Below, piece by piece: positions 53,989-62,881 of a stretch of 64,000 nt of DNA. Under the pieces are notes generated by a model, which saw only the letters and a program-made list of their open reading frames with translations, did no database searches and had not been told where the DNA came from. The position numbers and the translations under genes are program-made. Origin of the DNA: Lachnospiraceae bacterium (GTDB taxonomy: Bacteria; Bacillota; Clostridia; Lachnospirales; Lachnospiraceae); the NCBI GenBank assembly GCA_017938285.1, contig JAGBBW010000061.1, positions 7,627 through 71,626 of the forward strand, read 5' to 3'. Within the stretch, counting starts at the first letter, position 1, and each line of letters begins with the position of its first letter.

Positions 53989-54429
53989 ATGGAAAATGCA
54001 GTTTTAAATCAGATTAAATATTTGTTTGAGGAAAAAGGAATCCGTTATTACAGCGATGACAGTGAGAGAATCGGAGCAAAGTTTTCTGATTTTGTTTTAA
54101 TGTTTCATGTAACAGAAGAAGCCCTTTCTTTTAAAATGTATTTGGAAGAAAAGGCTTCTGCACAGTGCAGACCGGATGTGCTGGAATATTTGAACTACGC
54201 AAACCAGATCATGAAGGAAGGACATTTCATACTGGATAACGAAGGGGACATATACTTTATTATTTACACGGAGCGTTCGACAGACAGTTACATATCGGAT
54301 GGCCGTATCATGGACATACTGACAAAAGGTTACTCTGCGAATGAGATGTTTCATGAGGAACTGAAAACGGTAATTGCCGGAACAGCGACTCCGCTGGATG
54401 CGATTCGGAATACGATTAGTAACAGGTAA
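53989..54429 (+). CDS. Small cytoplasmic protein, possibly YbjN/T3SS-chaperone-like fold
   Basis: 146 aa, RBS CAGGAGGAA. The alpha/beta pattern and length resemble the YbjN family, but this is a weak judgement from memory. Confidence 0.35.
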   Translation: MENAVLNQIKYLFEEKGIRYYSDDSERIGAKFSDFVLMFHVTEEALSFKMYLEEKASAQCRPDVLEYLNYANQIMKEGHFILDNEGDIYFIIYTERSTDSYISDGRIMDILTKGYSANEMFHEELKTVIAGTATPLDAIRNTISNR

Positions 54430-54504
54430 AGGGAAAGAGGTCCAGGGATTGAATAACATCGAAAAAGAGAATATAATAGAAAAGGCAGGAAACTGGTGAA
54501 GCAA

Positions 54505-54533
54505 TTGAAAATTTGCAGAAAAAGCAATATAAT
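54505..54533 (+). promoter_or_regulatory. Sigma-A promoter upstream of the multi-ATPase operon
   Basis: TTGAAA at 54505-54510, 17 nt spacer, TATAAT at 54528-54533. Confidence 0.45.
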
Positions 54534-54587
54534 AGATGGTGAAATCGTTACGAATTATCGGTAATTTGCAAAAGGAGAAGAGGAAAA

Positions 54588-57500
54588 ATGCTGGATAGTA
54601 CGGTAAAGAATATGCTGTTTTTGTATGTAGACCACCTGGTTTGTCTTAGTATGGAAAACGGGGATAGAATAGAGGGAGAACTGCTGGCAGTGGAGGAGGA
54701 TGCGGTTGCCCTTTTGAAGGAAGGGGAAGTAAAACGGTATTCTTTTGCTGAGCTGACAGACGTGCGTTATGTGGGAAATCTGACAGATTACCGGACATTT
54801 GCTGGTACTGGAGAAATTGACAATACGTTCGTTTTTGATATATCTGCATGCAGTGATGAAACTATCATTGAGAAAATTAAATATCAGGAATATAACTGTA
54901 CCATGAGCTGCCATCTTGTCTTTGATATGCAGATTAAAGCTGCGGATATAAGGGTGGAGCGTTTTTACCATGTCAGGAATATGGATATCCTTGGTAAGTC
55001 AAACTATCTGTATACCTTTACAAACGGAACCTGTCTGTCTGGTATGCTGATGGAGTCTGGTGAAACCTATTCCCTTGTCTGTAATAATCGTACTATCATG
55101 GAATTTGACTGGAAAGAAGTGGAAGACATTACACGCCAGCCGGTAATTAATGATGAGATTACCGTTTATATGAAAACAGGAGAAGTATACAGTGGTATAG
55201 TTTGTGCCGCACAGCAGGAATTCTGCAATATTATGCTGGGCAGAACGCAGCTGCAGAAGATTCGTTATGCAGAAATGAAACGGCTCTTTTTTCATGGAGA
55301 GGTTACGGAATGCATGCCGGGAAAGCATGGTGTAGTAGACAATATCTATCGGTGTAAATATCCGCATTATCTTCAGAGTATGGAGCAGGCAAAGCTGTTT
55401 CAGTATGGTGCAAAGGTAATGTATATGGTAGGCATTAATCAGCGGGCGCAGGTGGCCAAGGAAGTAGAAGTTCTGATTTCTGAAACAGAGAAAGCGGAAG
55501 CAGAACATAAAATCGGAATTATTCTGACGATTGGTCCGATTACACAAACCGGAAGCTCCCAGAAGTGGTTTGGATACATCGGAAATAAATATGTCATGCA
55601 GTCCTGTGGAGAACCGGTGAGGGGGGATCTTGTATTTTATCCTGATGCGCAGCTTTTTACAAGATCACTGAATCTGCAGGAAAATATTTATGTGGTGAGG
55701 TATACCCCGACCGGACAGCTGAATGAACGGGGGCAGCAGCCGGTGACCATACTGGAGATGGTAGAAGCTATTCCCAAAAAATATATTGGTATGGTTGAAA
55801 TTGTGGATGGTGTCATTGTCAAAACACCGTTGTATCAGGCAGTGATTGGGGGCAGTCTCACGGGTTCTGTGTATAAAAATAAAGAAGTGGAAATTATCTG
55901 CAAGGATGGAAGTACCTGCACCGGAATCGTAGCAGAGCATAATGAGAAAGGCTTTACGCTGCATAATGGAGAACTAATCGATTATACCAGAATTGAAAAT
56001 GTCAGAATTTTTGACAGGGTTTCTTCGTATGGTGATAATGGGGTTGGTTTTACTGTTTCAGGCTTACGTTTTCATGTGAATGACAGCGCACTGGATATGG
56101 AGTCGGTGGAGATGTTAGCTGCCAACGTGAGAATATCTTATGTACTGGCGAATAATCTGTCAGGCAATGACCGGAAAGTTTTATGGAAATTTTTCAATAT
56201 TGTAGAGATGAAAGTATGGAAGGATTCTGTTCAGAAACCTGTGGAGCAGCCGGAAGGGGATTCTGAGCAGAAGATAAAGGAACTGCCGGAGAAATCTCCG
56301 GTTCAGGAAATTGCAGTGCTGTCGGAAAAGGATAATGGAATGTTATTAAAACAGCGGTTCGGCGAAATCCCAGGTGGTATAGAGGGAGGATACGGTATTC
56401 TGCATAAGGATTTTCGTAATCCGAAGGTTGTTTATGTCAACAGCACTTACCGTAATCCAAGGCTGACCACGGAAAAATGTGGAAAAGGACTGCCTTTTAA
56501 TGCCGCAGAAGTAAAGATACATGCCGAGGAACTGTTTGTACCGGGAGATTTTTACATTGTAAGGTATAAGGAGGTTTCCGGGGAAGCATATCGTTATGAA
56601 ATAGAATTTGTTGGTAAAATTAGAAAGTTGCCTTCCCTGATGGCGATTGATATTGAAGACAGTAACAGACTGTTTATCAGAATACAGGAGGGAGTTTCTG
56701 CAATTCCACAGAAGCCGGTAGTATATCAGAACAGCGTGCCGGAAGTAACAGATGGAGAAACGGTATTTTATGAATATGAGCGGATTTTAGGTAATGCAGA
56801 AGCAAATTATTATGGTCTTACCATGGAAGCAGTGATTCATGCGGCAGAAAAGGCGGGACTCTCCATAACAGACCAGGATATTGCTGTATGGCGGTTTGGT
56901 GTTTTGGAAAACAAAGATTATGCCATGACCATAGGCATATTGAACAGGGGAGTAGAGTTTGAACTTTCCCTTGTGGAACAGAAAGCCTTTAATATTCTAA
57001 AGACAGCAAAGCGTAAAATGATGGTGGCGTTTACCTGCAAAAACGGAAAAATTGCGAAGGTGAAGCTGGTACCGGACGAAGTATTGAAACTGCTGTGCTG
57101 GCAGAAAGGAACCGTAACTTCCTGTGGTGCTAATGACAAACACATCATAATTGACAAAAAAATTGTTCATTACTTATCTGTGCGGAGTGATGGACTGGTT
57201 AATAATTATGCAAAAAACGGACGGCTGGAAAAAGAAGAGGTTTATGTAAAGGTAGTACATTATGCGGAGTGGGGAGAAAAGAAACGACTGGTTTCTGCTG
57301 CCGCAGAAATACATCTGCAGGTTGAAATGGCAGATATTTTATATAATACAACACAGAACCGGTATATGGCATATAGAAACCAGACCCAGTTTGTTGCCCT
57401 GGAGGATGTGAGTTCGGAGAACCTTGCAGCATTAAAAAATACTTCGGTAGGTGTGCGTTTTGTACCAGAACCGGGAAGTAACCAGCTGAAAGCGTATCTT

Positions 57501-59636
57501 ATGGACAAGATTACAGAAAAAATTTCTCCGGAAGAAAATTTTCAGAGAAAAGTGGAAGCATTAAGGGACGATTTTAAGAAAGCAGCGGGTTCGCTGGATA
57601 TTTACCGCAGTACGGCAGAATGTCTTGCAGGCCGTACAGAATATCTCTTAAAGGAACTGGGCGGCGACAGGGAAGAACTGTTCCATGTACTGGTGGAATT
57701 GAAGGAACTCAGTGGTAATCTGGCGGCAAAGCAGGGAAGTGATTATACGGTGTTCCAGCTGGTACTGGAAAAAGCAGAGGGAGACATTTCAGAAATGCAG
57801 AGAGCATTAAAATGGGAAACCGAAGTAGAACAGATTCTGGCAGAATTACTGGACAGACTGGAAGCAATGGTCGGAAAGGATCTGAATGATTTATATAAAA
57901 AGTCTGCTCCTAAAATAAGCTGCCGCCCCAATGTAACGGAAATTGGGAAGTCAGAGCAGTATCTGTATATTCTGCTTTCCAATGAAGGAAATAAACAGCC
58001 GGCGGCTAAGGTGAGAGTCATTTTGGAGGCTACAGAACTGCCGGATGGTATGCTGCAGAGGGAGGTAGAACTGACAGCCGCCTTAGAAGCAGGTGCAGAG
58101 GCAATCCAGGTACCATTCCGTCTTGCGGTTTCTGATTTTAATGGAGATGGTTTCCTTGTAAACTGGACGATTAAGTACCAGTGTATTACCGGATATCAGG
58201 ATGGAAGGAATGAGCTTGGGGATCTATCCACTGAAGGAACATTCGAACTTCTGATTGCAAATGGAGAGCAGAACAAAAACAGAGAGGCAAAGAATCCGTA
58301 TGCAGAACCGGCAAAAGGAATGCCGCTGAAGACCAGGGAAATGTTTTTTGGACGGGTGAGACAACTGGTAAATTTCTGGAACCATGTACTGGACAAAGAA
58401 ACAGGAAAGCTGATACCGGGAAAAATGACGATTATTTATGGTCTGAGGCGTTCCGGCAAAAGCAGTCTGGTGCACCAGATTATGAATACGCTGAATACGA
58501 ATGAAATGGCAGCAGATGTACGGCAGAATGAAGATCTGGAGATAGCCTGGAAGGAAACAGAAAAACCATATGTTATCTATTTCCGGAATATGGGAGGAGA
58601 TTTTACCTATTATCAGGAACCGCTCTGGTTTGAGCAGTCATTGTATTTTGCAATCATGGATCAGTTAGGCAGGCAGATACCAGGGGAACTGAAGCAGGAA
58701 CTGCTGGCAGAGTGCGGCTGCATCCGGGAATCAGAAAAGAGCAGTGCGGCCAGGATGTCTTTGGATAAGATTATTGAGAATCCGGTCACAATGAAATTAC
58801 AGTTTAAGAAGTTTATTGAGGGATTCCGGAGACTGGATCAGGACAGACATAAGCTGGTGCTGATTATGGATGAATTTACAACACTTTGTGTCAAGGCAGC
58901 AAATTATACAGCAGAAGGGTATAAGAACTGGGAGAATGTTCCAACGTTTATAAATTCCTTTGCGGACATGGGATTTATTCAGATTGTTATCGGACATTCT
59001 TATATGATGACATCGTTGGAGCGGCTTGGAATTCTGAATCAGACCGTAGAAAATATCGACCAGTTAAAGCTGGAGGTATCGGAACTAGATTCTGTAGAAG
59101 CAAAAAAATTAATTATTGAGCCGATGGAAAGTGCCTTTGGCTGCAAACCATTTGATTCGACCATGGGTGTGAAAGCGGTGGAAAATTTACTGGATTTATC
59201 AGGAAGGCTGCCATTGATGATTATGCGCCTGTGTAACAGACTGTTTGAATATTTTAGAAGGTCAGACAGTGCCAGAATCGTTACTGATGATGTCCAGAAT
59301 ATGCTGCTGCACTGGTTTAAGGACCAGGAGAGTGTCACAAAGTTCAATACCAGCATTTTTGATGTGCTGATTGAGGAGGACAGCGTTGGCGGATGCCTGG
59401 AGGATCGTGATACATGGAAGTTCCTGGAGCATGTAGCCAAGCTTTCCATGAAGAGTGCAAATCGTGACTGTGATGCGGAAGAAGCGTTTAAAACGTGTGA
59501 ATCCCTGGCAAAAGAACGATGTGAAACGATAGCCAAGGAGCTGGATAAGCGGGGCGTTATTTCCCGGGAAGATGGAAGAATTAAAATTTTTGTTGGCCTG
59601 TTTGGAAAATACAATCAGTATAAAAAAGGATGGTAA
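54588..59636 (+). CDS. Giant 1682-aa protein: about 950 aa of repeated small beta-barrel-like modules, a helical/coiled-coil segment, a beta-sandwich-like segment, a PF01637-like (GxRRxGKS) ATPase and a C-terminal winged helix
   Basis: RBS AAAGGAGAAGAGG. Walker A IIYGLRRSGKSSL (nt 58440-58466), preceded by FFGRVRQL. Walker B LVLIMDEF (about nt 58855-58878). The C-terminal IAKELDKRGVISREDGRIKIF looks like a winged helix. The N-terminal modules are described in the findings. Confidence 0.85.
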   Translation: MLDSTVKNMLFLYVDHLVCLSMENGDRIEGELLAVEEDAVALLKEGEVKRYSFAELTDVRYVGNLTDYRTFAGTGEIDNTFVFDISACSDETIIEKIKYQEYNCTMSCHLVFDMQIKAADIRVERFYHVRNMDILGKSNYLYTFTNGTCLSGMLMESGETYSLVCNNRTIMEFDWKEVEDITRQPVINDEITVYMKTGEVYSGIVCAAQQEFCNIMLGRTQLQKIRYAEMKRLFFHGEVTECMPGKHGVVDNIYRCKYPHYLQSMEQAKLFQYGAKVMYMVGINQRAQVAKEVEVLISETEKAEAEHKIGIILTIGPITQTGSSQKWFGYIGNKYVMQSCGEPVRGDLVFYPDAQLFTRSLNLQENIYVVRYTPTGQLNERGQQPVTILEMVEAIPKKYIGMVEIVDGVIVKTPLYQAVIGGSLTGSVYKNKEVEIICKDGSTCTGIVAEHNEKGFTLHNGELIDYTRIENVRIFDRVSSYGDNGVGFTVSGLRFHVNDSALDMESVEMLAANVRISYVLANNLSGNDRKVLWKFFNIVEMKVWKDSVQKPVEQPEGDSEQKIKELPEKSPVQEIAVLSEKDNGMLLKQRFGEIPGGIEGGYGILHKDFRNPKVVYVNSTYRNPRLTTEKCGKGLPFNAAEVKIHAEELFVPGDFYIVRYKEVSGEAYRYEIEFVGKIRKLPSLMAIDIEDSNRLFIRIQEGVSAIPQKPVVYQNSVPEVTDGETVFYEYERILGNAEANYYGLTMEAVIHAAEKAGLSITDQDIAVWRFGVLENKDYAMTIGILNRGVEFELSLVEQKAFNILKTAKRKMMVAFTCKNGKIAKVKLVPDEVLKLLCWQKGTVTSCGANDKHIIIDKKIVHYLSVRSDGLVNNYAKNGRLEKEEVYVKVVHYAEWGEKKRLVSAAAEIHLQVEMADILYNTTQNRYMAYRNQTQFVALEDVSSENLAALKNTSVGVRFVPEPGSNQLKAYLMDKITEKISPEENFQRKVEALRDDFKKAAGSLDIYRSTAECLAGRTEYLLKELGGDREELFHVLVELKELSGNLAAKQGSDYTVFQLVLEKAEGDISEMQRALKWETEVEQILAELLDRLEAMVGKDLNDLYKKSAPKISCRPNVTEIGKSEQYLYILLSNEGNKQPAAKVRVILEATELPDGMLQREVELTAALEAGAEAIQVPFRLAVSDFNGDGFLVNWTIKYQCITGYQDGRNELGDLSTEGTFELLIANGEQNKNREAKNPYAEPAKGMPLKTREMFFGRVRQLVNFWNHVLDKETGKLIPGKMTIIYGLRRSGKSSLVHQIMNTLNTNEMAADVRQNEDLEIAWKETEKPYVIYFRNMGGDFTYYQEPLWFEQSLYFAIMDQLGRQIPGELKQELLAECGCIRESEKSSAARMSLDKIIENPVTMKLQFKKFIEGFRRLDQDRHKLVLIMDEFTTLCVKAANYTAEGYKNWENVPTFINSFADMGFIQIVIGHSYMMTSLERLGILNQTVENIDQLKLEVSELDSVEAKKLIIEPMESAFGCKPFDSTMGVKAVENLLDLSGRLPLMIMRLCNRLFEYFRRSDSARIVTDDVQNMLLHWFKDQESVTKFNTSIFDVLIEEDSVGGCLEDRDTWKFLEHVAKLSMKSANRDCDAEEAFKTCESLAKERCETIAKELDKRGVISREDGRIKIFVGLFGKYNQYKKGW

Positions 59637-59640
59637 TAGA

Positions 59641-61824
59641 ATGGAGAGTATTACAACAGAAAGAACGAGCGGGTTTATTGGCAGGGTAAATCTGTTTGAT
59701 GACATAAGAAAAGGTGTTTTTGTAACTCAGTTGGGAACGGGCACCTGTTATTCCCTTATGGGATTAAATGGAATTGGAAAAACACGCCTTGTGGAGGAAT
59801 GGGCAGAGAACTGGAGGAAGGATACCAGTAAGGACCCGAATATCTATTATTTCAGTACCCGTTTATCCGACGCAGACAGTGAGTGGAGCTACTGGGTAAA
59901 GCTGATTCAGGATGTCAGAAGGGTAATTCGTGAGGAGCAGTTAAGAAAAGCACCAAATCCGGAAGAAAACCTGGTGAATGAGATTTTAGACATATATAAA
60001 GAGATAGACACGAATCCTGCATTGTATTCGGAAATAGCAGGACTGAGGAATATGCAGAGAGACCGGTATTTCCGAAATTTTTTCGAGGTTTTTGAAGAAC
60101 TGGGAATTCATCTGATTATTACCATAGATGAGTTTGATGCAGCAGCAACCCTGTTTCCAAAGGAAAAGGGAGATGGCAGTTTCTTTCGAAAACTTTACAG
60201 TCTGTCTGGCAAAGCAGGAAAAAAGAATCTGACCATTTTGATTATTTCCAGACGGCGTATCGGAACCCTGGCACATGGGATGGAGCATGGTTCCGATATT
60301 GAAGATGCGTATCCTCCGTATGCCCTGAAAGGATTTACTTACCAGGAGCTGATCGAATATTTTCAGGGACTGGATAATTACAGTGCCATGACGGATGAGG
60401 CATTTAATGCAGTAATTGGATATTGTGGCACACATCCGGGGCTTCTGACTACCATGGGAGCTGCCATTGATTCCGTACCGTCCGGAAGTCCAATTGATGT
60501 GGATACCCTGTTTCTGCAGCGGAGACTGCCACTGGAAAAAACATTTGAGCGGATGCAGAAGCTGATGAAGCTGGAATACGTGGATGCAGAGAAGGAAAGA
60601 AACTGTATTGCTCCGTTCCGGCAGGCATTTCTTGGTCCGGTGTATGATTCGAGACTGGCATCCAGACTGAAAATGCTGCAGGATTATGGTTTTATAACCC
60701 ACAGGGGAGAGTACGAGGAAAATTTATATGAACTGGCAGGCTGGAAAAAAGAAGGAATGGAAACGGATGTATTCCGTTCTTATGCGGAGCAGCATGCGTA
60801 TGAACCGGTATCTCCTTACTTTGTGCTCTATATGAAATATAATGTTTTGCCGGAAGAAATGGACGACCTGGACAGAAGGAAGAGTTTTACGGAAGTGAAT
60901 ATCCGGAAAATGCTTGTAGACGTATATAAAAGTAAGTATGGGCCGGCGTGGAGAGCAGAGATGGAACAGGAAAAGGAGGGAAGCGATAAGGTTGCCAGGA
61001 TATTTAGTGGTAAGCAAACCTATCTGAAGAATATGGACAAGACTGCGGCAGCCAATCGTTCGGATATGGAGTATACCATTCTGAATGTGCTGGCCTTCCA
61101 TGAATATGCGCAGATTATTATAAAATACTGGGATCAGGCAAAGGTATATTTCCAGTCCTACGAACCGGAAGAGCTGGAAAAAGACTTTTTCTTCCTGTCT
61201 ATAACAAGAAATACGATAGAACATGAAAATGCAGAAATGTTGAATAACGAATATTGTGAAGTTGCTGCAAAGATTTGTGAAAGAATCAATAAGGGAATTG
61301 AAGAGGGACGGGGAGGTATTGTAAGAAATAAACCAGCCCGTCCGGCAGATGCTCCGGGGTTCAGTGGCTGGGGAGAACTGACGGCTGGAACTCCATTTCA
61401 AAACAGGCAGGGAAACAACTCACAGAATACAGTTTCTGGAAACAGCGCCGGACAGAATCAGGAGAGTCAGGCAGCACAGGGGAATACGCAGACGGAGGGA
61501 GCGGTTACCCAGGTACCGGTCAGCTGGGGCTATAACTATGAAGAAGTATTGGGACGTATGAGTGGGTCCTCCCAGGCGTTTGAGATTACATATAATTTTG
61601 AAAGAACATGCAGTTTTTCATTAACGGATGGTACAACAGTACGTTATGCAAAAGGAAATGTTGTGCTGGATGGAAGAAAGTATGTGGTTGCAATGGAAAT
61701 GGGAAGACACCGCTTTGAGAAAGACACGCCGGAAATGGCAGAAGTGTATGCTGTCTTTGACTATACCGAGGAGAAAAATGGAAGACCGGTTCCTCGTAAA
61801 GCATTTATGGGCAGATTAAAATAA
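59641..61824 (+). CDS. STAND-type NTPase fused to a HEPN (Swt1-like) domain, a Q/N/G/S-rich linker and a small C-terminal beta domain
   Basis: 727 aa from MESITTERTSGFIGRV. Walker A GLNGIGKTRL (nt 59761-59790). Walker B LIITIDEFD. HEPN motif RNTIEH at nt 61207-61224. The start lies 4 nt after the stop of the giant gene. Confidence 0.8.
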   Translation: MESITTERTSGFIGRVNLFDDIRKGVFVTQLGTGTCYSLMGLNGIGKTRLVEEWAENWRKDTSKDPNIYYFSTRLSDADSEWSYWVKLIQDVRRVIREEQLRKAPNPEENLVNEILDIYKEIDTNPALYSEIAGLRNMQRDRYFRNFFEVFEELGIHLIITIDEFDAAATLFPKEKGDGSFFRKLYSLSGKAGKKNLTILIISRRRIGTLAHGMEHGSDIEDAYPPYALKGFTYQELIEYFQGLDNYSAMTDEAFNAVIGYCGTHPGLLTTMGAAIDSVPSGSPIDVDTLFLQRRLPLEKTFERMQKLMKLEYVDAEKERNCIAPFRQAFLGPVYDSRLASRLKMLQDYGFITHRGEYEENLYELAGWKKEGMETDVFRSYAEQHAYEPVSPYFVLYMKYNVLPEEMDDLDRRKSFTEVNIRKMLVDVYKSKYGPAWRAEMEQEKEGSDKVARIFSGKQTYLKNMDKTAAANRSDMEYTILNVLAFHEYAQIIIKYWDQAKVYFQSYEPEELEKDFFFLSITRNTIEHENAEMLNNEYCEVAAKICERINKGIEEGRGGIVRNKPARPADAPGFSGWGELTAGTPFQNRQGNNSQNTVSGNSAGQNQESQAAQGNTQTEGAVTQVPVSWGYNYEEVLGRMSGSSQAFEITYNFERTCSFSLTDGTTVRYAKGNVVLDGRKYVVAMEMGRHRFEKDTPEMAEVYAVFDYTEEKNGRPVPRKAFMGRLK

Positions 61825-61833
61825 CTAAGTCTC

Positions 61834-61866
61834 CGGCGGGGAAAACGCTTTAATCAGCGTTTCTCT
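61834..61866 (+). repeat. 33-nt motif, copy 2 (cggcggggaaaaCgctttaatcagcgtttcTct), in the 73-nt gap before the SpoVK-like AAA+ gene
   Basis: 31/33 identical to 13140-13172. Hairpin GAAACGC-TTTAATCA-GCGTTTC. Confidence 0.6.
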
Positions 61867-61897: not shown

Positions 61898-62881
61898 ATG
61901 GAAGAACAGAGTTTTATGAGTGGCATGAAAAATAGTGCGGAAGTGAATGCTGGTCTGGAGGAAACTATTTTTGATTCACCGGAAGTGAGAGGAATCCGCC
62001 AGATAGAAGAAGAACTTTACCAGCCGGGAGAAATTCCGGACAGCTCTGTGGTGCAGCAGATTTATGAAGTGAAAAAGCGGATGGAGCTGTTCGATAAAAA
62101 AAAGGCGTTGGAAAACTGGAAAACAGGAGAGGTTCCGGAAAAGAAAAAAACCATTCCGAATTTTGTCATTATGGGAGGTCCGGGAAGTGGAAAGACCACA
62201 CTGGCAAAAAGGCTGGCTGCTTATCTGGGCAGTGACTGCGGGAAGCGGGCAAATGTGATAGGAAGTGTGCAGAGACAGTGGATTCTGATAAAATCTGCCT
62301 CCGATTTAAAGGGCACCCATGTAGGACAGACGGCGGAGCGGGTGTACAATATGCTGGTAAATGCAGCAAAGAACAAGCAGATTATTTTTATTGATGAAGC
62401 ATATCACCTTCAAAATGATGAATTTGGACGGGAGGCGGTGGATATGCTGCTTCCCCTGTTGTCCGGAGACAGGGATGTGATTGAAAAGGCAGCAGACGGG
62501 CAGGTCGTTTCCTATTCCTTTTCAGAACATGGGACTGCCGTACCACCAATCTGGTTTGGCGGTTATGAGCATGAAATGAGGAAAATGCTCTCGGAAAATC
62601 CAGGGTTATACCGGAGAATGATAAAATTGTCCCTGTCCACACCCGGAGTAAAGGAACTGTTTCGGAACTTATGTATGCTTTCGAAGGACAACCAGGACTG
62701 TCTCACCGTCTTTCTGGATAATGAAAAAGAAATCAAGGATTATTTTGCCTGGGGGATGCGGCCGGAATATGTGGATTATTTTTCTTCCTATGCCGGTGTG
62801 AGAAGCATGTATGAGACAGCGGAGGTGTATTTGTCCAGGTCCATGGAAAAATCCCAGGCAGGAAGCTGCTGCACCGGATGA
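61898..62881 (+). CDS. AAA+ ATPase of the SpoVK/CbbX/EccA type
   Basis: 327 aa. FVIMGGPGSGKTTLAKRLA, IIFIDEAYHL, FGREAVDMLLPLL, and GGYEHEMRKMLSENPGLYRRM matches the family layout (A/GGY...NPGLxSRF). Confidence 0.8.
   Translation: MEEQSFMSGMKNSAEVNAGLEETIFDSPEVRGIRQIEEELYQPGEIPDSSVVQQIYEVKKRMELFDKKKALENWKTGEVPEKKKTIPNFVIMGGPGSGKTTLAKRLAAYLGSDCGKRANVIGSVQRQWILIKSASDLKGTHVGQTAERVYNMLVNAAKNKQIIFIDEAYHLQNDEFGREAVDMLLPLLSGDRDVIEKAADGQVVSYSFSEHGTAVPPIWFGGYEHEMRKMLSENPGLYRRMIKLSLSTPGVKELFRNLCMLSKDNQDCLTVFLDNEKEIKDYFAWGMRPEYVDYFSSYAGVRSMYETAEVYLSRSMEKSQAGSCCTG

Follow-up and report, generated by a model that had tools for sequence, protein, structure and literature searches.

A conserved two-gene paired-STAND system with a predicted HEPN ribonuclease domain in a Lachnospiraceae bacterium

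STAND nucleoside triphosphatases (NTPases) oligomerise in a nucleotide-dependent manner when triggered by a ligand, and HEPN ribonucleases (RNases) complete their active site by pairing two domains. Avs and bacterial NACHT proteins each unite an N-terminal effector and a C-terminal repeat sensor in a single protein and, to our knowledge, the characterised bacterial STAND defence proteins are all single polypeptides that both sense and kill. In this work we analyse a stretch of 64,000 nucleotides from a Lachnospiraceae bacterium (GenBank assembly GCA_017938285.1, contig JAGBBW010000061.1, positions 7,627 to 71,626 of the forward strand; hereafter the window), in which two adjacent genes of the + strand, at 54588-59636 and 59641-61824, encode a giant STAND protein of 1682 residues and a second STAND protein of 727 residues that carries a predicted HEPN domain behind its NTPase module (the STAND-HEPN protein). 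The two genes constitute a paired-STAND/HEPN system that is genuine, conserved and so far uncharacterised, of a kind that has been anticipated computationally. With moderate confidence, we read it as a conflict system in which nucleotide-driven co-assembly of the two proteins would activate an RNase.

The nearest described system is the nSTAND2 two-gene counter-invader operon, a computational prediction by Kaur, Burroughs, Iyer and Aravind (eLife 2021; PMC8195603, section 15, Fig. 6C). Like the present pair, this operon, which is described as mobile, comprises two genes whose products both have STAND cores and are predicted to form a hetero-multimeric ring, and one of the two proteins bears an effector, often a HEPN RNase. 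In the nSTAND2 operon, however, the effector-bearing STAND protein (GT4 or HEPN) has eroded NTP-binding motifs and is inactive, whereas Walker A and B are invariant here. Furthermore, the Pfam nSTAND2 profile reaches just 18-22 bits (cut-off 24), in two of ten distant relatives of the HEPN protein, and the partner module matches nSTAND1, ATPase_2 and NB-ARC rather than nSTAND2: at other loci nSTAND1 is found in 8 of 10 partner modules, three of them above cut-off, and one match above cut-off was obtained for each of ATPase_2 and NB-ARC. GT4 variants were not encountered in the present family. The pair follows the logic of the nSTAND2 operon, which is its closest description, but lacks two of that operon's defining features.

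Other described proteins share one side or the other of this architecture. The HEPN-STAND fusions of Anantharaman et al. (2013; PMC3710099) also combine a HEPN domain and a STAND NTPase, to which a small beta (cold-shock-like) domain is sometimes added at the C-terminus, and the Swt1/Abi2 HEPN clade of the same survey is fused to AAA+ ATPases as well; there the HEPN domain is N-terminal to the NTPase, in contrast to its C-terminal position here, and no obligatory giant partner is described. HEPN is listed among the effectors of bacterial NACHT proteins (bioRxiv 10.1101/2022.07.19.500537), which, like the Avs proteins, join a STAND switch to an effector that kills the cell or degrades nucleic acids. 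Sensing of phage proteins has been shown for Avs proteins; here two STAND proteins apparently divide sensing and execution between them, the effector comes after the NTPase, and none of the Avs or NLR models of PADLOC is matched. Plant sensor/helper NLR pairs (the NRC network) are alike in consisting of two paralogous STAND proteins, one a proposed sensor and one an executor, but this is an analogy only, with no specific homology beyond the STAND fold and with different effectors and sensors. A last likeness is with protein B of PDC-M34 (PDLC04592), a PADLOC candidate-defence model: positions ~51-183 of this 192-position profile align to the HEPN region in 10 of 12 homologues (best E 2.1e-8). 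The match concerns the HEPN region and not the NTPase, the window protein itself has no match, the giants match no PDC-M34 model, and a literature search found no paper mentioning PDC-M34. If shown to be defensive, the pair would offer a tractable way to study, in bacteria, NLR signalling by two components (a sensor and an executor) whose output is an RNase.

The limits of the STAND-HEPN gene bear on all that follows. Its open reading frame (ORF) spans 59572-61824 on the + strand, 750 residues at full length, and we consider the ATG at 59641 (727 residues plus stop, 59641-61824) the better start: it lies 5 nt past the stop of the giant gene (59636), a Shine-Dalgarno-like AAGGA stands upstream of it, and the N-termini of all homologues agree with it. 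With a gap of 5 nt, the gene is probably translationally coupled to that of the giant. A preliminary description of this DNA placed the HEPN region at residues 440-540 in the numbering of the 750-residue ORF, and its R523 and H528 are in the 727-residue numbering that is followed here.

The two genes go together almost throughout the family. In homologous loci a gene for a giant of 1599-2161 residues stands directly 5' of the STAND-HEPN gene, with a gap of a few nucleotides or an overlap; it is upstream in the window, in six metagenome contigs (L001-L003, L005-L007) and in all six Clostridia genome loci with enough room, and a large partner gene is directly upstream in 12 of 12 close loci besides the window. 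The association extends to a distant, shorter subfamily (alignment A3), where 50 of the 51 metagenome loci that offer 2500 nt or more of upstream sequence have a large upstream ORF of up to 2061 residues. A hidden Markov model (HMM) of giant residues 1085-1682 matches the C-terminal module of those ORFs at E 1e-24 to 1e-57, while the N-terminal part of the window-type giant is present in just two of them, so that the partner consists of a STAND module that stays constant, preceded by a part that varies. The sole locus of the 51 in which no upstream partner ORF was found is L060; L059, with slightly less than 2500 nt of room, is the one other locus of this kind.

Moreover, the two proteins occur as a natural fusion. 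P0133, a 1995-residue protein of the representative library, contains the partner module at residues 908-1465 (E 3e-21 to giant residues 1084-1675) and the STAND-HEPN part at residues 1507-1992, behind a different N-terminal region rich in helical repeats. Another family protein, P0063 (1525 residues), apparently has three tandem NTPase modules before its HEPN domain. The NTPase cores of the giant and of the STAND-HEPN protein are themselves paralogous, as judged from profile-profile comparison (92.8% probability, E 3.9e-7, from the hhGR motif to Walker B), with intact Walker motifs and with the same long insert between Walker A and Walker B; direct BLASTP between the two modules is not significant, and the relationship is visible by profile-profile comparison only. 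Since the genes are paired, a fusion exists and the cores are paralogous, it is very likely that the STAND-HEPN protein interacts with the giant. The preliminary description had also suggested a partnership, and this idea stands on these three grounds, though not on the one it had proposed, which was the C-terminal tail of the shorter protein.

Tight coupling of the genes, with a 5-nt gap or an overlap, would also suit a toxin-antitoxin-like or addiction pair, in which the HEPN protein would be a constitutively dangerous RNase and the giant would mainly restrain it, with no sensing of an invader; many HEPN proteins are indeed toxins of toxin-antitoxin and abortive-infection modules (PMC3710099). 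A partner of 1300-2100 residues with a conserved, apparently active NTPase would however be an implausibly costly antitoxin, and the joining of both parts in one chain in P0133 is easier to reconcile with co-assembly than with neutralisation by a labile partner. We regard this explanation as quite unlikely.

The giant (54588-59636, + strand) has beta repeats in its N-terminal part, a helical middle region and, C-terminally, an NTPase module of the STAND type, and is annotated at its source just as 'ATP-binding protein [Lachnospiraceae bacterium]'. Comparison of alignment segments with hhalign finds three clear internal repeats at probabilities of 95-98% overall: repeat 1 at residues ~11-89 (54618-54854; 97% against repeats 2 and 3), repeat 2 at ~169-281 (55092-55430; 97.5-97.9% against repeat 3) and repeat 3 at ~411-520 (55818-56147), all on the + strand, with a fourth, weaker repeat. 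These beta modules, which the preliminary description had called barrels, are real. Repeat 2 has a Pfam LSM/Sm-like match at residues 187-221 (E 6.6e-4, below cut-off), repeat 3 a weak match to NCBIfam MM0924 at residues 429-472, and weak LSM/Sm-like, RimP_C and cold-shock-like hints appear among the giants. The conserved C-terminal module, residues 1085-1682 (57840-59633, +), consists of a beta region, the STAND NTPase and a helical and winged-helix-like part. Residues 1275-1443 match Pfam ATPase_2, AAA_14 and AAA_16, and both Walker A (GLRRSGKS, nt 58440-58463, +) and Walker B (LVLIMDEFT, nt 58854-58880, +) are conserved across 11 giants. The giants of the window and of the close loci are homologous in their N-terminal repeats as well as in their C-terminal ATPase part.

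STAND NTPases carry, in the definition of Leipe et al. 2004, an hhGRxxE motif before the P-loop, a Walker A of the form GxxxxGK[ST], a Walker B of the form hhhhD[DE], an arginine sensor that follows strand 4 and, in the helical domain behind it, a GxP motif; their fold of NTPase, helical and winged-helix parts is shared with Apaf-1, CED-4 and NLRs. The N-terminal half of the 727-residue protein is a STAND-type NTPase, and this assignment is supported by motifs, Pfam and Foldseek alike. The module, with its helical and winged-helix parts, covers residues ~12-400 (59674-60840, +). Its hhGR motif is FIGRV, residues 12-16 (nt 59674-59688); Walker A is GLNGIGKT, residues 41-48 (nt 59761-59784); Walker B is IITIDEFD, residues 159-166 (nt 60115-60138); the SRR sensor is within IISRRR, residues 201-206 (nt 60241-60258); and the GxP motif, CGxxPGLL, is at nt 60424-60447, all on the + strand. 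An alignment of 14 homologues at 30-43% identity (alignment A1) shows how well these are kept: in the hhGR motif (F12-I-G14-R15) R15 is invariant and G14 nearly so; G41, G46, K47 and T48 of Walker A, D163, E164, F165 and D166 of Walker B, and S203, R204 and R205 of the sensor are all invariant; and in the GxP motif C262, G263, G267, L268 and L269 are invariant and P266 nearly so.

Pfam AAA_16 and ATPase_2 are matched in 14 of these 14 homologues, and NACHT in 12. The STAND-HEPN protein of the window is matched by the same three profiles over residues 13-270, each slightly under its cut-off, so that none passes (AAA_16 27.8 bits for a cut-off of 32.6, ATPase_2 26.9 for 33.2, NACHT 21.3 for 26.7); a precomputed Pfam table lists PF01637 and PF13191 for it and several such families for the homologues. 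The AlphaFold model of the full-length protein has a mean predicted local distance difference test score (pLDDT) of 67.7 and is good over residues 13-558. A Foldseek search with this model retrieves Orc1/Cdc6 at E 1.8e-5, ORC subunits, and the plant NLRs NRC2, Sr35 and NRC4 together with CED-4 and Apaf-1 at E 4e-4 to 4e-3. These matches span ~380-440 columns, and their global TM-scores are low (0.2-0.25) because part of the query alone aligns. The motifs quoted in the preliminary description, including R-N-x-x-x-H at nt 61207-61224, are all present exactly, and its reading of a STAND/AAA_16 P-loop is borne out by both the conservation and the fold matches.

Behind the NTPase, residues ~405-558 (60853-61314, +) form an all-helical domain that is very probably a HEPN RNase domain, judging from its sequence motifs and its weak profile matches, and that would belong to a subfamily missed by current Pfam thresholds and other curated profiles. 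Catalytic HEPN domains have R-x4-6-H with a polar residue (N, D or H) after the arginine, placed where a core helix gives way to the loop that leads to the last helix, and an upstream E-x3-[KR] (PMC3710099). The domain contains an element of each kind. The first, E418-x3-R422 (E418-V-N-I-R422; nt 60892-60906, +), lies in the string TEVNIRK at residues 417-423, and both of its defining residues are invariant in alignment A1. The second, R523-N-T-I-E-H528 (61207-61224, +; in RNTIEHEN, residues 523-530), is the predicted catalytic motif: R523, H528 and N530 are invariant in 14 of 14 homologues, and N524 is kept in 13. On its own, R-x4-H would turn up about once by chance in such a protein, as estimated from its size and composition, and the motif is meaningful only because it is conserved. 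The preliminary description had made its case depend on conservation in orthologues, and beyond the 14 homologues R-x4-H is kept at the aligned site in 135 of the 138 family members that contain the HEPN region (165 family proteins were fetched), nearly always as R-N/D-x3-H.

The predicted structure agrees with this placement. The isolated HEPN region is modelled by AlphaFold as all helical with a pLDDT of 89; in the full-length model a helix at 509-522 is followed by a loop and then by a helix at 536-556, so that R-x4-H ends the helix before the last one, and in the domain model, with helices at 105-123 and 132-153, the motif likewise falls at the junction of a helix with the loop that precedes the last one. 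When the HEPN regions of 12 homologues were cut out and compared with Pfam, HEPN_Swt1 (PF18731) was the top family for 10, with a best E of 2e-5, scores of 21-25 bits and profile positions 2-109 of 115 aligned. Other HEPN families are weakly matched as well, namely Apea, Abi_2, SAV2148, Csm6 and Cthe2314 in Pfam, and the HEPN-type models RTasHEPN, Csx1 and Csm6 in PADLOC, beside the PDC-M34 protein B profile. A profile search of PDB sequences gave no match, and no relatives with a solved structure were found.

After the HEPN domain comes a disordered linker, residues 559-625 (67 residues; 61315-61515, +; pLDDT 21-30), whose 38-residue core at 575-612 contains 61% Q/N/G/S, as compared with 22% in the whole protein. 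Homologues have P/A/T/S-rich linkers at the same place, and a disordered linker behind the HEPN domain is thus a feature of the family. The chain ends in a beta-rich tail of about 100 residues, ~626-727 (61516-61821, +), with strands predicted at pLDDT <50. Linker and tail had both been noticed in the preliminary description, and both are there; the further claim that the tail resembles the barrel modules of the giant is not supported by comparison, with a best BLASTP E of 0.34 and hhalign probabilities <1% for both tail types against the giant alignment.

The tails vary widely over the family. About 65 of the 138 members end after the linker, and 49-51 of the 73 tailed members have a common beta domain of ~65 residues, sometimes duplicated, the remainder having unrelated tails. 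This common domain, unannotated and present in about one third of the family (for instance residues 560-632 of P0013; two copies in P0033 and P0041), has the consensus ...GNLRGxIxG...AxIS...L...G...V.V.I..WD.NA..FN. It has no sequence match in the PDB, where a profile search gave repeat noise alone, and an S1- or cold-shock-like identity was not confirmed by that search. The tail of the window protein has no relative among the 73 family tails (iterated HMM, jackhmmer); neither it nor the tail of P0002, the closest homologue (42% identical overall), matches the common domain, and the two do not match each other. A database search with the tail only found nothing, and is a weak test, since the protein itself was not retrieved either. 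The window tail is best described as an orphan, with no support for its being copied from the barrels of the giant.

These comparisons also bear on the idea of like-with-like contacts, in which the tail would be a copy of a barrel module and would mediate hetero-oligomerisation. The tail and the giant region are both predicted to be beta-rich, and the start of the common tail domain shows one short, non-significant resemblance to a giant segment (score 16.7, probability 0.3%). The HMM of the common domain gave nothing significant against 14 giants plus three family proteins that are fused or longer, about half of the family keeps the partner while lacking a tail, and the window tail shares no sequence relationship with either the common domain or the tail of P0002. 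We consider this idea highly improbable.

The sequences show two genes that look co-transcribed, each encoding a conserved and seemingly competent STAND NTPase, with a conserved HEPN active-site signature in the second. From what is established on STAND oligomerisation and on the pairing of HEPN domains, we infer the following mechanism. The giant, with its repeated Sm-like beta modules, lineage-variable N-terminal parts and constant C-terminal STAND module, would be the sensor or scaffold, and the second protein, with its STAND NTPase, helical/winged-helix region, HEPN RNase, flexible linker and small variable beta domain, would be the executor. A trigger, most plausibly RNA or protein derived from an invader, would be bound by the variable region of the giant; both STAND modules would then co-oligomerise in a nucleotide-dependent manner, bringing HEPN domains together as catalytically competent pairs; and metal-independent cleavage of RNA could follow, with growth arrest or loss of the invader RNA as a result. 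A role in defence or abortive infection is favoured by the patchy distribution of the family, by its variable genomic position, by the variable sensor-like and tail regions, by the likeness of the HEPN region to PDC-M34 protein B and by WYL-domain neighbours in two loci. A bolder and more doubtful possibility is that the family is a widespread bacterial counterpart of paired sensor/helper NLRs, in which the giant, having recognised RNA or protein of an invader through its variable N-terminal modules (Sm-like repeats in the window), and its paralogous STAND partner would join in a mixed, resistosome-like ring with the HEPN RNase as sole output, and the small, rapidly diverging C-terminal beta domains, among them the orphan tail, would tune specificity for substrate or trigger.

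Several results weigh against a paired-STAND conflict system with an RNase output. HEPN_Swt1 scores in the homologues are 18-26.4 bits, the highest coming from more distant relatives, and all lie under the 27.5-bit gathering threshold; the window protein has no HEPN profile match at all in the Pfam search. The Swt1-like HEPN domain of the preliminary description, for which an HMM search had been proposed as a check, is therefore supported at family level, through the sub-threshold HEPN_Swt1 matches of the homologues and the conserved motifs, and not as Pfam membership: the predicted domain is nearest to the HEPN_Swt1 clade, yet is not a member by the curated criterion. Foldseek with the HEPN-region model gives a best E of 1.2 in the PDB, to Bcl-2-like or generic helical bundles, and of 0.77 in BFVD, a search that is uninformative rather than negative because a 41-residue helix in the model hampers global superposition. 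The effector is C-terminal to the NTPase, unlike that of characterised Avs and bacterial NACHT proteins. No system model of PADLOC-DB 2.0 matches either protein as a whole, the window protein matching none of its families and the giant giving weak P-loop matches alone. No defence island is recognisable in the neighbourhoods examined, and a search of 2.9 million viral contigs turned up no relative. As the HEPN subfamily falls under the Pfam thresholds and the pair is unrecognised as a system by PADLOC, annotation pipelines label both of its genes merely as 'ATP-binding protein'.

With no HEPN profile above threshold and no structural match, region 405-558 might instead be a non-catalytic helical domain serving regulation or oligomerisation, and the protein a STAND regulator or scaffold whose winged helix binds DNA, as that of Orc1/Cdc6 proteins or MalT-like regulators does; indeed, the N-terminal part finds its best fold matches among the DNA-binding Orc1/Cdc6 proteins. 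Yet the arginine, the polar residue, the histidine and E-x3-R are kept while other positions diverge to ~25% identity, which is hard to explain without catalysis, and HEPN families dominate the weak matches in two independent libraries. A non-catalytic domain thus seems very unlikely to us.

The absence of a defence-island context also bears on whether the pair is an accessory element or a piece of core machinery. A profile search of the whole library places the family at 867 clusters at 50% identity, 148 of them at E <1e-30, and a scan with peptide patterns finds 8 loci among 185,579 species genomes, all of them in Clostridia. The flanking and downstream genes vary between genomes and are mostly housekeeping, metabolic or transport genes, and searches for mobile-element boundaries found neither a tRNA nor flanking repeats. 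A housekeeping machine for RNA processing or surveillance, with Sm-like RNA-binding repeats and a HEPN endoribonuclease working by a logic like that of Las1 or Swt1, would suit the lack of defence islands, the weak LSM/Sm-like, RimP_C and cold-shock-like hints in the giants and neighbours such as the genes for prolyl-tRNA synthetase and fumarase, and eukaryotic HEPN proteins with core RNA-processing roles exist (PMC3710099). Such a machine would however hardly be so patchy by the pattern scan, with flanks that differ from genome to genome, with an N-terminal part of the partner that is not conserved family-wide and with C-terminal tails that vary or are absent; these features point to accessory conflict genes rather than core machinery. 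We hold the housekeeping explanation to be unlikely, and retain that of a paired-STAND conflict system.

The surroundings of the pair add some minor observations. WYL regulators often accompany defence systems, and WYL-domain proteins are encoded directly 3' of the cassette in two Clostridia genomes (L012, 10001-10996, and L015, 9992-12889); one of these neighbours has a WCX domain, and one is a protein of 965 residues. In the window, two consecutive classical AAA+ ATPase genes lie 3' of the cassette on the + strand. The first (61898-62881) encodes a 327-residue SpoVK/CbbX/EccA-like protein, and the second (from ~62878 to beyond 64000), with GPSGTGKT, FIDELDAIG and RPGRLER motifs, runs off the window end. 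Both were considered as members of the system and rejected, being absent from the 12 related loci checked, and they probably form a unit of their own.

Between the prolyl-tRNA synthetase gene and the giant gene there is a YbjN-like gene of 146 residues (PF10722, E 5e-6; 53989-54429, +), which has no counterpart at the corresponding position in L001-L008, the loci with gene tables. A promoter-like site stands 5' of the giant gene at 54505-54533 (+; TTGAAA, a 17-nt spacer and TATAAT), which comes from a consensus scan only, with 11 of 12 matches, and is not evidence of function. The same kind of scan gives a weak terminator-like hairpin 3' of the STAND-HEPN gene at 61843-61862 (+), with a 7-pair stem and a poor T tract. 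The cassette is slightly AT-richer than its surroundings, with a GC content of 0.41-0.44 over window positions 54001-60000 against ~0.44-0.50 in most of the window, and GC skew is positive across the whole window, consistent with nearly all of its genes being on the + strand.

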